32,000 nt of DNA, from contig CAVYCN010000004.1 of NCBI GenBank assembly GCA_963767005.1, forward strand, positions 441,301 to 473,300, written 5' to 3'. This DNA comes from an uncultured Actinomycetes bacterium. Its GTDB lineage: Bacteria > Actinomycetota > Thermoleophilia > UBA2241. Below the pieces are notes generated by a model. It did not search any database, was not told the origin of the DNA, and saw only the letters and a program-made list of their open reading frames with translations. The translations under genes were made by a program, and so were the position numbers. The first letter of the stretch is position 1. The number at the start of each line of letters is the position of its first letter. Shown here in pieces: positions 13,383-17,922 of this stretch.

Positions 13383-13817
13383 TCACCGCGCGGCAAGCTC
13401 GTCGAGCCATTCGCGGATACGCATCTCGATGGCGTCGCGGACCTCTCGATAGACCGGCAGGCGCTCATCGGGGTCGCCCTGGACGGCGTCCGGGTCGGGA
13501 AACGGCCAGTGCAGCCTCGTGCCCATACCGGGGAACGTCTTGGGACACTCGCGGTTCGCTCGCTCGCAGACCGTGATCACAAAGCCGAAGTGGACTTTGC
13601 CGAGGAACTCGGAGAGGTCCTTGGCGCGCGCGCCGCTGATGTCGATGCCGCGCTCAGCCATGGCCTCGATGGCAAGGGGGTCGACGGTGGTGGCCTCCAG
13701 GCCGGCACTGAACGCCTCGAAGCGATCCGGCGCCAGCTCACGCAGGAACGCCTCGGCCATCTGACTGCGGCAACTGTTGTGGACGCACATGAACAGCACC
13801 CTGGTCTTGTTGTCCAA
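13383..13817 (-). CDS. arsC: Arsenate reductase, LMW-PTP (thioredoxin-coupled) type
   Basis: 'VLFMCVHNSCRSQMAEAF' is a CX5R P-loop. The downstream Cys pair in 'VITVCERANRECP' matches the Cys82/Cys89-type relay of Bacillus/Staphylococcus ArsC. Confidence 0.9.
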   Translation of the reverse strand: MDNKTRVLFMCVHNSCRSQMAEAFLRELAPDRFEAFSAGLEATTVDPLAIEAMAERGIDISGARAKDLSEFLGKVHFGFVITVCERANRECPKTFPGMGTRLHWPFPDPDAVQGDPDERLPVYREVRDAIEMRIREWLDELAAR

Positions 13818-13887
13818 ACCGACTCCTCCTCGGCGAGTTGATATCGCAGGCTACCCGGCCTGTGTCAGGAAACGATGAACTCGCCAA

Positions 13888-13930
13888 TCATAAACACACG
13901 TTGACCATAAATGGAAGTGTATGTGATAAT
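13888..13930 (+). promoter_or_regulatory. Divergent ars promoter region: TTGACC-18-(TGt)GATAAT with an overlapping imperfect inverted repeat
   Basis: TTGACC at 13901-13906 and GATAAT at 13925-13930, preceded by TGT (extended -10-like). The imperfect IR tcataaacacac (13888-13899) / gtgtatgtga (13917-13926) brackets the promoter and is a candidate ArsR operator. This is an AT-rich patch in an otherwise GC-rich window. Confidence 0.4.
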
Positions 13931-13971
13931 CGGGGAGGTCAAACCGCTTGGATCTCAGGAGAAGACACCGC

Positions 13972-15162
13972 ATGGCGACCATGCCTAGGAAGCGCCTCTC
14001 GTTCCTCGATCGCTATCTCACCGCCTGGATCTTCCTGGCGATGGCGCTCGGCGTGTTTTTGGGCTGGACCTTTGCCGGCGTGCCCGCCTTCATCGATCGC
14101 TTCAAAGCGGGCACGACCAACATCCCCATCGCCTTCGGCCTGATCGTGATGATGTATCCGCCGCTTGCCAGGGTGCGCTACGAGGAGCTCGGCGACGTCT
14201 TTCGCGATTACAAGGTCCTCGGTCTCTCGCTCGTGCAGAACTGGGTGATTGGCCCGTTCCTCATGTTCTTCCTGGCGATCATCTTCCTGCACAACTACCC
14301 GCAGTTCATGGTGGGCCTCATCATGATCGGCCTGGCGCGCTGCATCGCCATGGTGATCGTCTGGAACCAGCTCGCCGACGGTGACACCGAGTACGCAGCC
14401 GGGCTGGTGGCTTTCAACGCGGTCTTCCAGGTGCTCTTCTACAGCCTCTTCGCCTGGGTCTTCGTGACCAGGCTGCCGCCGCTGTTCGGCCTGCACGGAG
14501 CCGCAGTCAACGTCTCGATCGGTCAGATCGCGAAGAGCGTCTTCATCTACCTCGGCATCCCGTTCCTGGCCGGCATGCTCACCCGCTACCTCGGGCTCAA
14601 GTACAAGGGCCGCCGCTGGTACGAGGAGACGTTCATACCGCGCATCAGCCCGCTGACACTGATCGCTCTGCTGTTCACGATCGTCGTCATGTTCAGCCTC
14701 AAGGGCCATCTCATCGTCAAGCTGCCGCTCGACGTCGTGCGCATCGCCATCCCGCTGCTCATCTACTTCGTCGTCATGTTCTTCGTGAGCTTCTACCTGG
14801 GCCGCAAGATCGGCGCCGACTACTCGAAGACCGCGACCCTGTCGTTCACGGCGGCCAGCAACAACTTCGAGCTCGCCATCGCCGTGAGCATCGCCGTGTT
14901 CGGGATCGGTTCGGGGGTGGCGTTTGCCGCCGTGATCGGGCCGCTTGTCGAAGTGCCGGTCATGATCGGCCTGGTCAACGTCGCCCTCTGGATGGGGCGC
15001 CGCTACTGGGCCCTGAGCGACGAACCCGTGCCGGCTGCGGTGGTCGCCGGCGTCGAGGAGGTCGCCTGCGACCCACCGAAGGAGCATGATCGCCCTGCCG
15101 TTCAGGCGTCCACAGATCCGCCCGCACAGCCTCGGCCCACAGCCAACCCGGAGGCGAGATGA
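13972..15162 (+). CDS. acr3: ACR3-family arsenite efflux permease
   Basis: '[21 protein letters not shown]' is a typical ACR3 N-terminus, with about 10 TM helices including '[14 protein letters not shown]'. ATG 13972 follows AGGAGA; the track alternative is TTG 13948. The C-terminal ~45 aa are a Pro/Ala-rich tail. Confidence 0.9.
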
Positions 15163-16837: not shown

Positions 16838-16842
16838 GCGCG

Positions 16843-17118
16843 ATGCCGCAACTGCGCTACATCGACCAAGCCGTCACATTGGAGCTCGACGTAGGACGCT
16901 GCAACGGCTGCGGTCTCTGCCTGGCAGTCTGCCCGCGCGCCGTCTTTGCCCTCGCCGACGGTCGCGCCTCACTGGTGGATCGAGGCGCCTGCATCGAGTG
17001 CGGCGCCTGCGCCCTCAACTGCGTGTCTGGCGCTATCAGCGTCGATTCCGGTGTGGGCTGCGCACAGGCGATAATCCACGGCTGGCTGACGGGCGGCGAG
17101 CCCAGCTGCGACTGCTAA
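16843..17118 (+). CDS. hgcB: HgcB-like 2x[4Fe-4S] ferredoxin
   Basis: ATG lies 9 nt after GGAAGG; an in-frame GTG at 16834 overlaps the hgcA stop. It has 'CNGCGLCLAVCP' and 'CIECGACALNCV' (two CX2CX2CX3C), a conserved 'SGVGCAQAI' Cys, and a C-terminal 'SCDC'. It shares a frame with track ORF 16090..17118, whose upstream part is shadow. Confidence 0.8.
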   Translation: MPQLRYIDQAVTLELDVGRCNGCGLCLAVCPRAVFALADGRASLVDRGACIECGACALNCVSGAISVDSGVGCAQAIIHGWLTGGEPSCDC

Positions 17119-17148
17119 GACGCGTACTACAACGGCGGAGGGGAGAGC

Positions 17149-17922
17149 ATGGGGCCCGAATGGAACCTCTACGAGCGGCTGCTCGCTGAACTACCCAGCG
17201 ACGAGCACGTGCGCGCCTGCCTCGTGGGCAGTGCCTGGACGCTAGTCGAGGCTGTCGGGGTGGGCATGGCGATGTCGTTCCACGACGACACCTGGCTGTC
17301 GTGCACCACGTCGCCAATCGCGGGTCGACCACTTGCCGAAGTGGCCACACAAATGACGAGCTGGAACCTGACCGAGGCCGCGATCGGCCTGGCCGCCCTA
17401 AACGCGCACTACAACTCCAGGGAGCGCGTCGAGCAATGGCTCGGTCGGCGCATCGGCGACAGCGAGGACAGCCCCGTCTTTCGCTCGCTGGAAGACGAGC
17501 TCGCCGGCACGAAGGTGGGCGTGATCGGTCACTTCCCCGGTCTCGAGCGACTGGCCGCCCGTTGCACGCTCACGGTCTTCGAGCGGCGGCCACGACCCGG
17601 TGACCTGCCCGACTACGCCGAGGACTACCTGCTGCCCTCCATGGACTGGGTCCTGATCAGCGGCACGGCGCTCACCAACAAGACCCTGCCGCACCTCCTC
17701 GACATCACGCACAAGGCCCGCGTCGTGCTGGTCGGTCCGAGCGTGCCGCTCACGCCGCTGTGGTTCGAGCTCGGTGTCCACATGCTGGCCGGCAGCGTGG
17801 TGATCGACCGGGAGCGGCTGTGGCCCGTCGTGCAGGAGGGCTCCTGCTTCGAGGTGTTCAGGAACGGGGCCGCAAGGATTCAGGTCACCGTGGACGATCT
17901 GCCGGGCGGTCGGAGGGCGTAG
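17149..17922 (+). CDS. DUF4213/DUF364-family protein (Rossmann-like, 'putative heavy-metal chelation' family)
   Basis: ATG follows GGAGGGGA. 'MTSWNLTEAAIGLAALNAHYN', 'KVGVIGHFPGL', 'DWVLISGTALTNKTLPHLL' and 'VVLVGPSVPLTPLWFELGVHMLAG' match my memory of the PF13938+PF04016 architecture. Confidence 0.7.
   Translation: MGPEWNLYERLLAELPSDEHVRACLVGSAWTLVEAVGVGMAMSFHDDTWLSCTTSPIAGRPLAEVATQMTSWNLTEAAIGLAALNAHYNSRERVEQWLGRRIGDSEDSPVFRSLEDELAGTKVGVIGHFPGLERLAARCTLTVFERRPRPGDLPDYAEDYLLPSMDWVLISGTALTNKTLPHLLDITHKARVVLVGPSVPLTPLWFELGVHMLAGSVVIDRERLWPVVQEGSCFEVFRNGAARIQVTVDDLPGGRRA

Follow-up and report, generated by a model that had tools for sequence, protein, structure and literature searches.

We show here that an uncultured soil actinobacterium of the class Thermoleophilia carries genuine hgcA and hgcB genes within an arsenic-resistance operon. 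The locus was analysed in a stretch of 32,000 nucleotides (referred to below as the window), in which a gene for a YfcE-like metallophosphoesterase (MPE) and arsC lie on the minus strand and acr3, arsR, hgcA, hgcB and a gene for a DUF4213/DUF364 protein on the plus strand, in the order MPE<-arsC<>acr3->arsR->hgcA->hgcB->DUF364. The five plus-strand genes are contiguous, and every junction between them is either an overlap or a gap of at most 30 nt: ATGA stop/start overlaps connect acr3 with arsR (15159-15162) and arsR with hgcA (15542-15545), 5 nt separate hgcA from the ATG of hgcB, and 30 nt separate hgcB from the DUF364 gene. An earlier note on this DNA had described the same gene order, strands, overlaps and gap sizes, all of which were borne out when the sequence was read again, and its placement of the hgcAB pair structurally inside the acr3-arsR operon stands, given these junctions and a single promoter-like site. 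The high-GC, actinobacterial host that it had assumed is likewise in keeping with our comparisons, in which the nearest relatives are Thermoleophilia MAGs. The arrangement is not a product of chance, as its core is kept in relatives and ars genes adjoin hgcAB in 21 of the 160 loci that were fetched. Judged from these comparisons, the locus is probably a horizontally shuffled arsenic-resistance cassette, in which an acr3 operon under ArsR repression has recruited genuine hgcAB genes as an accessory module.

The HgcA protein (15542-16837, plus strand, 431 aa) scores 409.2 bits on the equivalog model NF040863 (cutoff 275), covering model positions 1-323 of 325, and HgcB (16843-17118, plus strand, 91 aa) scores 113.7 bits on NF040864 (cutoff 99), so that the curated models uphold the naming of both proteins in the earlier note. 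Two other assignments of HgcA were rejected, namely a fused HgcAB-like paralogue (NF043039, 198 bits, below the cutoff of 285) and a corrinoid iron-sulfur protein, CFeSP (CdhE-like NF003195, 80 bits, below the cutoff of 306). The cap-helix motif NVWCAAGKG, in which the cysteine is the corrinoid ligand, was found at residues 181-189 (16082-16108), and hydropathy, a crude test, places five hydrophobic segments between residues 286 and 429, in line with the motif and transmembrane domain noted previously. The Pfam domain CdhD covers residues 130-240, and matches in the PDB are confined to the CFeSP corrinoid domain (2H9A, 4C1N, 4DJD; residues 130-251). HgcA thus shares a homologous corrinoid-binding domain with the CFeSP of the Wood-Ljungdahl pathway (AcsC/CdhE), but differs from it by the WCAAGK Cys ligand, the C-terminal transmembrane domain and a CC-rich N-terminus. 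The latter extension (15626-15763) contains four CC pairs, at residues 29, 40, 56 and 73, and a tail of the same kind is present in most of 79 HgcA ORFs; it has already been described (Haft, 2022) and, going by these ORFs, is a family-wide trait. HgcB contains two CX2CX2CX3C motifs (CNGCGLCLAVC and CIECGACALNC) and, as had been noted, additional cysteines, namely a GVGC, which may correspond to the Cys73 position of Pseudodesulfovibrio mercurii ND132, and a C-terminal SCDC (CxC) instead of a CC pair. A terminal CC was seen in only 35 of 77 HgcB ORFs, and EPSCDC is the common ending of a whole subclade; the SCDC ending appears to be a variant rather than a failure. In a neighbour-joining tree of 79 HgcA cores, a set without any sequence from a confirmed methylator, the window protein and those of the relatives L001-L007 form a monophyletic Thermoleophilia-type clade apart from Desulfobacterota, Bacillota and other HgcA proteins. 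In its cap helix and profile score, the window protein cannot be told apart from ordinary Hg methylators, and it shows no sign of retargeting. It is best classed as a putative Hg methylator. To our knowledge, Hg(II) is the sole proven acceptor for the HgcA family, and we know of no demonstration of Hg methylation for any member of the Thermoleophilia.

The divergent intergenic control region between arsC and acr3 (13818-13971) has a GC content of 51.9% compared with 70% for the window, in agreement with the shared AT-rich promoter region claimed previously. A sigma-70-like promoter of the acr3 operon is predicted at 13901-13930 on the plus strand (TTGACC, 18 nt, TG-GATAAT; 10 of 12 matches, with shuffled sequences giving 0.4 +/- 0.6). 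It is the sole promoter-like site between 12400 and 18600, with the reservation that in Actinomycetota the sigma-70 consensus is of limited predictive value and internal promoters may exist as well. The -35 block TTGACCAT is kept in four relatives (L001, L002, L003, L005). One inverted repeat (13832-13842/13875-13885) lies inside the control region, and an imperfect one, ATCATAAACAC...GTGTATGTGAT, read by eye from the sequence, flanks the promoter; the TTGAC-N11-GTCAA repeat of L001, L003 and L005 is not retained in the window. No terminator-like structures were detected within the operon or directly 3' of the DUF364 gene.

The regulator encoded by arsR (15159-15545, plus strand) is an ArsR/SmtB repressor with an R773-like metal site (NF033788, 78.7 bits, cutoff 55). 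The As(III)-type CVC reported in the earlier note is present as GERCVCEM and could be aligned with other hgcA-linked ArsR proteins; we take it to align also with the CVC of R773, using the sequence of the latter as a guide only. The third R773 cysteine is absent, the alpha-3 site having only two As(III) ligands where R773 has three, and a conserved C-terminal cysteine is present. In deltaproteobacterial loci, a four-Cys type of regulator (CxCG...CYC) is found upstream of hgcA, and one of these, in L051, shares 34% identity with the window ArsR. By its motifs, the window regulator is a canonical R773-like CVC ArsR and not of the four-Cys ND132 type, which is newly described here. The parallel with ND132 drawn in the earlier note is therefore a loose one: the ArsR/SmtB gene directly upstream of hgcA, its co-transcription with hgcA and the arsenic-responsive control of hgcAB by ArsR are published for that strain (Gionfriddo et al., 2022/2023, bioRxiv 10.1101/2022.10.17.512643), but the ND132 regulator belongs to a different subclass and its arsR2-hgcAB locus lacks other ars genes.

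The remaining ars genes encode the arsenite efflux permease Acr3 (13972-15162, plus strand, 396 aa; TIGR00832 equivalog, 450.8 bits, cutoff 282.8) and a probable arsenate reductase of the low-molecular-weight phosphatase, thioredoxin-coupled type (arsC, 13383-13817, minus strand; Pfam LMWPc, 73 bits). The best NCBIfam model for ArsC, TIGR02691 (arsC_pI258_fam), scored 114.7 bits and hence below its cutoff of 174.3, and the translation shows CX5R and two downstream cysteines (VCERANREC), that is, the catalytic Cys triad. The window resembles canonical ars operons (arsR-acr3-arsC; E. coli R773 arsRDABC) in having an ArsR whose CVC lies in the DNA-binding region, Acr3, a probable ArsC of the thioredoxin type and a divergent promoter region, and differs from them by the addition of hgcA, hgcB and the DUF364 and MPE genes and by having arsR as the second rather than the first gene. 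The MPE gene (12635-13360, minus strand, 241 aa; Pfam Metallophos_2, 81 bits) lies downstream of arsC, and in all related ars clusters that were inspected its neighbour is acr3 or arsC. The operon ends with a gene (17149-17922, plus strand) for a protein of 257 aa with two Pfam domains above the gathering score (PF04016, 125.9 bits; PF13938, 56.1 bits), which is homologous to PDB 3L5O (3l5o_A, E = 1.6e-40). It shares the two-domain fold with the DUF364 family members Dhaf4260 (PDB 3L5O) and Orf5, the methyl-SAM cyclase of bonnevillamide biosynthesis. The subfamily to which it belongs (at least 79% identity) occurred in an ArsR/ars context in every case found, including three loci with arsR but without hgcAB (L092, L094, L095), whereas distant homologues (45-60% identity) are mostly located with genes for TonB-receptor/FecCD ABC transporters and FmdE. 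The ribose-binding glutamate is conserved as E145, and C52, C233, H45, H182 and M165 are specific to the subfamily. On the strength of these contexts, the DUF364 and MPE genes are ars-cluster genes of this lineage and not hgcAB-specific partners, which is also newly described here.

The block common to the window and its relatives spans 5.35 kb (12605-17953, genes on both strands), as delimited by blastn against L002, where positions 5052-10549 show 88-90% nucleotide identity and the flanks are unrelated; in the comparison with L093, the right edge again falls at about 17975. The genomic surroundings of the cassette differ between the window, L002 and L093, and its GC content is 66.8%, compared with 70.3% in the remaining window. 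The order MPE<>acr3-arsR-hgcA-hgcB is kept in four Thermoleophilia-type genomes (L001, L002, L003, L005), and the same gene set is found in shuffled orders in L085/86, a contig of JGI 3300075153 and L096. The module content varies greatly among relatives, with arsA/D, arsP, MFS, trx3, DUF364 and hgcAB as the variable parts. In unrelated HgcA lineages, hgcAB has been independently placed inside ars operons, with the arrangements arsR-hgcA-hgcB-acr3-arsC (L053), arsC-hgcA-hgcB-acr3 (L149, L174), acr3-arsC-hgcA-hgcB (L154) and MPE-arsR-hgcA-hgcB-(trx3)-arsP (L021, L102). In 139 of the 160 loci the fetched flanks contain no ars structural gene, and the link between ars genes and hgcAB is thus facultative.

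The presence of ars genes in the flanks of hgcAB has been reported previously (McDaniel et al., 2020, mSystems, PMC7438021, Fig. 6; Peterson et al., 2025, PMC11984097). The MAG loci of these studies resemble the window in that hgcAB lies directly beside acr3, arsC and arsR; hgcA-positive Actinobacteria including Thermoleophilia had also been listed before, and the hgcA phylogeny, which is discordant with the species tree, suggests horizontal transfer. The window differs from the published loci in that hgcAB is internal to the operon, with overlapping or nearly overlapping codons, in that the boundaries of the cassette are defined, and in the conserved DUF364 and MPE genes, which are unmentioned in McDaniel et al. 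(2020) and Peterson et al. (2025). Lower expression of hgcA has been reported where arsR is present (PMC11984097). An arsenic hypothesis for HgcAB has been raised and tested in ND132 (Gionfriddo et al., 2022/2023). As both the pattern and the idea are published (McDaniel et al., 2020; Gionfriddo et al., 2022/2023; Peterson et al., 2025), reading an arsenic function from the hgcAB-ars linkage amounts to an existing, unproven hypothesis; the window locus strengthens the published link between Hg methylation and arsenic and does not show the enzyme acting on arsenic.

We propose that ArsR would occupy the promoter region and be released when As(III) binds to the CVC motif, upon which the five genes acr3-arsR-hgcA-hgcB-DUF364 would be transcribed on one mRNA and arsC and the MPE gene divergently. 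ArsC would then reduce arsenate and Acr3 would export arsenite. HgcB is expected to reduce the Cys-ligated corrinoid of HgcA, which would become methylated, and HgcA might transfer this methyl to a soft metal(loid) bound by thiols and handed over by its CC-rich N-terminal tail and the C-terminal cysteines of HgcB.

The earlier note had argued that the HgcAB machinery acts on, or is directed against, arsenic instead of or besides Hg(II); nothing in the sequence shows an action on arsenic, the motif and profile being those of ordinary Hg methylators and the finding in ND132 being negative. Some arsenic-related role of the window HgcAB is possible, if not quite to be expected, and As(III) is unlikely to be its physiological acceptor. 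One might speculate that HgcAB is a corrinoid-dependent arsenite methyltransferase, an alternative to the SAM-dependent enzyme ArsM, and that its product methylarsenite leaves the cell via Acr3 or, in relatives, ArsP. We consider this doubtful, even though hgcAB is tightly and repeatedly embedded in ars operons, arsR and hgcA are separated by a thioredoxin_3 ('ArsE-like') gene in L001 and L005, and a permease of the ArsP family, described as an exporter of methylarsenite (PMC7229686), directly adjoins hgcAB or the cluster in L001, L005, L009, L021, L102 and the JGI contig. Methylated arsenic is known to arise through ArsM and methanogen MtaA, and methylcobalamin provides a precedent both non-enzymatically with GSH and in the MtaA side reaction, by which a corrinoid methyl group reaches arsenic (PMC6950371, PMC13262295). 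HgcA, a membrane-anchored, Cys-ligated corrinoid protein, is unrelated to ArsM, and its cap helix and profile score speak against this function. The carbanion-type transfer proposed for Cys-ligated methylcobalamin would also suit electrophilic Hg(II) better than As(III). In ND132, the one organism in which this has been examined, As(V) is tolerated less well by the hgcAB knockout than by the wild type, but As(III) tolerance is equal and mono- and dimethylarsenicals were not detected in cultures (bioRxiv 10.1101/2022.10.17.512643). Moreover, a sister ars cluster that also has DUF364 and MPE (L095) encodes a bona fide ArsM (323 bits, cutoff 263) and an ArsM-like gene shares the ars cluster with hgcAB in L149, so that HgcAB is not simply a replacement for ArsM, and under anoxia the toxicity of methylarsenite is reported to exceed that of arsenite (PMC11653729).

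Alternatively, HgcAB may handle Hg(II) or another soft cation, either as a co-regulated defence against co-occurring thiophilic toxicants or through accretion of modules on a mobile cassette, with ArsR as merely the local metal(loid) sensor and arsenic having no chemical role at HgcA. The differing contexts in the window, L002 and L093, the low GC content of the cassette and its variable module content would fit this explanation. ArsR/SmtB repressors respond to many metals (PMC7438021). It also counts in favour of this explanation that mercury resistance in Streptomyces lividans is controlled by a regulator of the ArsR family. We nevertheless hold it to be unlikely, since several unrelated lineages have hgcAB inserted between acr3 and either arsC or arsR, a recurrence that passive accretion would not be expected to produce, Hg-dependent regulation of hgcA was not found in the published literature (PMC11984097), and neither mer genes nor an integrase, a transposase or att repeats were detected at the cassette in the window. 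A further proposal is that HgcAB serves methyl-cycle or C1 homeostasis perturbed by arsenic, with arsenic stress and SAH accumulation signalled via ArsR-type regulators and Hg methylation being accidental. The DUF364 protein would fit this idea by its adenosyl/SAM-type Rossmann pocket, the only characterised member of the family acting on a SAM derivative (PMC2954201, PMC12930334), but the proposal is highly improbable in view of the canonical As(III) type of the window ArsR, the subfamily DUF364 genes beside arsR without hgcAB and the absence of folate or methionine-cycle genes from the cassette. Combining these elements, HgcAB of Thermoleophilia and several other lineages could be an arsenic-directed, ArsR-controlled, membrane-anchored corrinoid methyltransferase of thiol-bound As(III) or another thiophilic metalloid, the product exiting via Acr3 or ArsP and the ars-specific DUF364 protein (SAM-type pocket, gained Cys/His/Met) and MPE representing unrecognised ars gene(s) that supply or process the substrate. 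We regard this combination as rather improbable; if true, an enzyme that detoxifies arsenic would methylate mercury as a side reaction. Our preferred reading remains the recruitment of hgcAB as an accessory module of the acr3 operon.

Several gene starts have alternatives. The acr3 gene most likely starts at ATG 13972, in agreement with the L083 gene calls, within an open frame that begins at TTG 13948. The MPE gene starts at 13360 (M37) and not at 13468, matching the gene calls of L081/L083, and therefore does not overlap arsC. An in-frame GTG of hgcB at 16834 would overlap the hgcA stop codon. For hgcA, GTG 15566 lies 21 nt past the arsR stop codon, is preceded by AAGGAG and was chosen by the gene callers on near-identical contigs; the true start may be this GTG, giving a protein of 423 aa, and the second ATGA overlap is thus not necessarily a functional start.

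By each sequence test applied, the two proteins encoded between arsR and DUF364 are true HgcA and HgcB. The earlier note had described them as an HgcA-like and HgcB-like pair, and on curated HMMs both score above the equivalog cutoffs. HgcA reaches 409 bits on the NCBI HgcA equivalog model (cutoff 275) with an alignment that spans the whole model, and HgcB exceeds its cutoff of 99 with 113.7 bits. HgcA stays below the cutoffs of the fused HgcAB-like paralogue model (198 vs 285 bits) and of the model for CdhE/CFeSP, the corrinoid iron-sulfur protein (80 vs 306 bits). Its corrinoid domain is of the CFeSP type (Pfam CdhD) with the cap helix NVWCAAGKG, its only matches in the PDB are to the CFeSP large subunit, and its C-terminal part contains five hydrophobic segments. 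An exact-sequence look-up of this HgcA returned no record. HgcB carries two ferredoxin motifs and the GVGC cysteine and ends in SCDC instead of CC. This C-terminal CxC is not an oddity, as the SCDC ending is common to a whole, large subclade; a CC ending is present in only 35 of the 77 HgcB ORFs examined. The hgcB ORFs of five relative loci (L027, L058, L068, L076 and L079) stop directly after PGVG, so that an in-frame stop occupies the position of the conserved cysteine, in line with the report of a selenocysteine form of HgcB (Haft 2022). HgcA has an N-terminal extension of around 100 residues with four CC pairs. An arsenic-specific, ArsD-like adaptation is ruled out for this tail, since the majority of the 79 HgcA ORFs examined have CC-rich tails, ars-free loci included. 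Such tails have been described previously, and many are Cys-Sec in other lineages (Haft 2022, bioRxiv 10.1101/2022.07.06.499078).

The raw sequence, its ORFs and matches to two profile libraries bear out the proposed gene map. On the minus strand, arsC of the low-molecular-weight-phosphatase type (13383-13817) is followed 22 nt 3' by a gene for a YfcE-like metallophosphoesterase (MPE, 12635-13360). A longer MPE ORF extending to 13468 was rejected as over-extended, as its Pfam match begins only at residue 40; gene callers on near-identical contigs place the start at M37. The plus strand carries acr3 (open from 13948 to 15162, with the ATG at 13972 as probable start), then arsR (15159-15545), hgcA (15542-16837), hgcB (16843-17118) and, last, a gene encoding a DUF4213/DUF364 protein (17149-17922). 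The sequence shows ATGA overlaps at both of the claimed places (15159-15162 and 15542-15545), and likewise the claimed spacings of 5 nt ahead of hgcB and 30 nt ahead of DUF364. An alternative hgcA start is the in-frame GTG at 15566, preceded by AAGGAG, which was chosen by the gene caller on the relative contigs L081-L084 and which is an ATG in L002 and L003. Depending on the start, arsR and hgcA thus overlap by 4 nt or lie 20 nt apart, and in neither case can a promoter or terminator fit at this junction.

A consensus scan of the 6.2 kb around the cassette found one sigma-70-like promoter, at 13901-13930 (TTGACC, 18 nt, extended -10 TG-GATAAT), compared with 0.4 sites in shuffled sequence, the sigma-70 consensus being a weak guide for Actinomycetota. 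The -35 block TTGACCAT is kept 5' of acr3 in L001, L002, L003 and L005; it alone is clearly conserved, and comparison of the relatives did not resolve a common ArsR operator. A TTGAC-N11-GTCAA repeat is found in L001, L003 and L005 and is not retained in the window. In the same divergent region, just upstream of arsC, lies an 11-nt inverted repeat at 13832-13842/13875-13885 (GGCGAGTTGAT / ATGAACTCGCC, 32-nt spacer), which is mostly retained in L002 and could be an operator or a structure in the arsC-MPE 5'-UTR. No convincing intrinsic terminator was found within the operon or just after DUF364, where the downstream fold was no better than shuffles, and the sole match in an Rfam search for riboswitches and other RNA elements was a tRNA.

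An ArsR-family gene directly 5' of hgcA on the same strand is found at 21 of the 70 genome loci with sufficient upstream sequence, and an ArsR-family gene is present at 24 of 80 metagenome hgcA loci; this frequency of around one third matches published counts. In an alignment, the hgcA-linked regulators fall into two classes. ArsR2 of Pseudodesulfovibrio mercurii ND132 has a four-cysteine pattern (Gionfriddo et al.), which is that of the deltaproteobacterial hgcA-linked class (CxCG ... GPRTCYC). In contrast, the window ArsR resembles the classical R773 arsenite repressor of E. coli, whose sequence serves in the alignment as a guide only, and it is only 34% identical to the four-cysteine-class regulator 5' of hgcA in L051. 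As the window ArsR is R773-like and not of the four-cysteine class, hgcAB came into this lineage without a regulator of its own and was set under a canonical ars repressor.

The closest HgcA proteins (60-79% identity) in a scan with one genome per GTDB species come from the Thermoleophilia/Actinomycetota MAGs L001-L007, which form one clade with the window HgcA in a neighbour-joining tree. The core of MPE diverging from acr3-arsR-hgcA-hgcB was found in L001, L002, L003 and L005, while the accessory genes vary: arsD-arsA in L003, an ArsP-family permease in L001 and L005, and between arsR and hgcA a thioredoxin_3 gene (PF13192, CxxC) in L001 (5449-5697) and L005 (7702-7950). This family is termed "ArsE-like" in the ND132 paper (Gionfriddo et al., bioRxiv 10.1101/2022.10.17.512643). 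A small thioredoxin_3 gene, placed either behind hgcB or again between arsR and hgcA, is also seen among contig JGI 3300075153 and L102. The ars-hgc cluster of L003 encodes two further proteins (1952-3201, minus strand), a DUF6951 protein, which is also found in the JGI contig, and a 268-aa protein with a match to PF04060, the N-terminal [4Fe-4S] domain of the large CFeSP subunit, in its C-terminal part. In other relatives the genes are rearranged. In L085/86, arsC-MPE-DUF364 diverges from acr3-arsR, with hgcA-hgcB further along on the acr3-arsR strand; in the JGI contig, MPE-arsP diverges from acr3-arsR-trx3-DUF364-x-hgcA-hgcB; and in L096, arsR diverges from hgcA-hgcB beside an MPE gene that diverges from acr3-arsR. 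A linkage of hgcAB and ars genes that persists while gene order changes to this extent argues more strongly for a functional tie than a single frozen order. Apparent frameshifts in the long-read MAG contigs split arsC and hgcA in L002 and acr3 in L003 and L005, and fuse hgcA to hgcB in L083, so that automated annotation of these loci is unreliable.

Of the 80 genome loci, 11 have ars structural genes (acr3, arsC, arsA/D, arsP, arsM or trx3) within the fetched flanks, as do 10 of the 80 loci from metagenomes; these counts are underestimates, since many contigs are short, and the sample is biased to canonical cap helices, as NVWCAAGK was among the retrieval patterns. Several embeddings are same-strand insertions in which HgcA is just 41-57% identical to that of the window: arsR-hgcA-hgcB-acr3-arsC in L053 (Bacillota), arsR-arsM-...-arsC-hgcA-hgcB-acr3 in L149, arsC-hgcA-hgcB-acr3 in L174, arsC-arsR-acr3-arsC-hgcA-hgcB in L154, acr3-hgcA-hgcB in L146 and MPE-arsR-hgcA-hgcB-(trx3)-arsP in the Coriobacteriia-type loci L021 and L102. 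The arrangement in the window is not chance and is a clean, conserved instance of an already documented phenomenon. McDaniel et al. 2020 (PMC7438021) listed 17 hgcA-positive Actinobacteria, Thermoleophilia among them, and showed hgcAB with acr3, arsC, arsR and arsM flanks. Peterson et al. 2025 (PMC11984097) again saw acr3 and arsC with arsR-linked hgcA, with hgcA less expressed in the presence of arsR, and hgcAB expression was not under mercury control (PMC11984097).

The earlier note had made the pair a structural part of an arsenite-derepressed operon. Contiguity and conservation bear out its place within the ars operon, and from this arrangement we infer repression, arsenite induction and co-transcription. 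In the best-supported account, ArsR would leave the acr3 promoter upon binding of As(III), Acr3, ArsR, HgcA, HgcB and DUF364 would be co-produced from the derepressed polycistronic operon, arsC-MPE would be transcribed divergently, and HgcAB would function in the same way as it does in known methylators. The further proposal that HgcAB acts on arsenic restates a live published hypothesis, as the precedents of McDaniel, Gionfriddo and Peterson make clear; the central idea of an hgcAB-arsenic tie is already in the literature. It was tested explicitly in ND132, where hgcAB is under the control of ArsR2, a regulator responsive to arsenic and SAH (Gionfriddo et al. 2022/23, bioRxiv 10.1101/2022.10.17.512643).

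We consider it unlikely that As(III) itself is the methyl acceptor and is methylated directly by HgcAB. Such an activity would agree with the repeated embedding of hgcAB in ars operons, with neighbours such as thioredoxin_3 genes and ArsP-family genes, the methylarsenite-exporter family (PMC7229686), and with the precedent for corrinoid-dependent arsenic methylation (PMC6950371, PMC13262295). However, the catalytic signature of HgcA is unaltered and the one experimental test to date, in ND132, was partly negative: the wild type exceeded the knockout in As(V) tolerance but not in As(III) tolerance, and methylated arsenicals were undetected (Gionfriddo et al., bioRxiv 10.1101/2022.10.17.512643). 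The toxicity of methylarsenite under anoxia (PMC11653729) also speaks against it, as does the co-occurrence of ArsM, which is found with hgcAB in L149 and with DUF364 and MPE in L095. The idea that ArsM and HgcAB are mutually exclusive alternatives is likewise unsupported, as both are present in L149 and probably also in the JGI contig. HgcAB as an arsenic enzyme is a minority reading that would matter greatly if true. The clearest genomic argument for arsenic as the factor that sets when the methylmercury-producing machinery is made comes from operons such as this one, in which hgcAB is surrounded by an arsenite pump, a canonical arsenite sensor and other ars genes. To our knowledge, HgcAB is the sole known source of environmental methylmercury, and such control is relevant for forecasting methylmercury formation in arsenic-containing soils and sediments. 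The present case adds a well-delimited cassette, which can be synthesised for direct tests, and two unstudied ars-cluster genes, DUF364 and the metallophosphoesterase.

These two genes look like unrecognised ars accessory genes, not HgcAB partners. The window DUF364 protein is identical to one encoded on contigs (the longest being 904 kb) of the ENA assemblies ERZ25039473/79/80, which are 94-99.96% identical to the window across the shared regions. All members of its subfamily (at least 79% identity) that could be placed lie in ars contexts. DUF364 follows arsC-MPE in L085, occurs straight after arsR with hgcAB not in view among L092, L094 and L095, and is absent from the remaining hgcAB loci examined, which rules it out as a dedicated HgcAB partner. 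Homologues with 45-60% identity are mostly found beside TonB-receptor/FecCD ABC transporters and FmdE, and one homologue with 60% identity has neighbours that are neither ars nor transporter-type. According to an alignment, the ars-linked subfamily (P0001-P0007) has gained C52, C233, H45, H182 and M165; other DUF364 proteins never have cysteine at positions 52 and 233 and mostly have Arg, Arg and Gln at positions 45, 182 and 165, respectively. H45 aligns to within one residue of the pocket residue Arg42 of the DUF364 protein Dhaf4260 (PDB 3L5O), and the gained residues may form a site for a thiophilic ligand. The sole characterised DUF364 enzyme uses a SAM derivative, and the fold has an adenosyl-type pocket (PMC2954201, PMC12930334). 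We found no paper linking DUF364 to hgcA or ars genes. Among the loci compared for MPE context (the window, L001, L002, L003, L005, L085, L092, L095, L021 and L102), the MPE gene adjoins acr3 or arsC in all Thermoleophilia ars clusters seen and lies directly 5' of arsR-hgcAB in the Coriobacteriia-type loci L021 and L102.

Positions 12605-17953 are 88-90% identical to L002 at the nucleotide level, with unrelated flanks on either side, and the right edge recurs at ~17975 in comparison with L093, where a D5-primase-like gene comes next. The GC content is 66.8% in the cassette and 70.3% in the remaining window, the flanks of which contain ordinary genes (PAS/GAF/SpoIIE regulator, PfkB kinase, C1-type aminopeptidase, PBP4-type carboxypeptidase). 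To judge from these alignments, the cassette has clearly moved between genomic contexts, by a mechanism without visible trace. A tRNA-Glu gene (18182-18257, minus strand) has its 3' end 230 nt from the cassette; integration of an island at this tRNA has no support, as a search found no direct (att-like) copy of its end, and the cassette flanks within the window encode neither an integrase nor a transposase. Left of the cassette, an ORF at 11546-12274 encodes no more than the C-terminal portion of a DUF294 nucleotidyltransferase and is possibly a truncated gene. A second lower-GC stretch (~64%), with genes for a radical-SAM/PDZ/DUF512 protein (5274-6863, plus strand) and an HD-type (HD_5-domain) protein (3729-5111, minus strand), bears no relation to the cassette. 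At the junction of the PfkB kinase and PAS/GAF/SpoIIE regulator genes, a 21-nt unit (CGTCGTCGGCGGGGAGTCAGG) is perfectly duplicated in tandem (10440-10481). Lastly, L082 (ENA ERZ25039480 contig_42629) belongs to the same sample series and matches the window at 99.96% identity, but only rightwards of 14281; the break falls within acr3, with unrelated genes upstream, and reflects either rearrangement at the strain level or a chimeric assembly.
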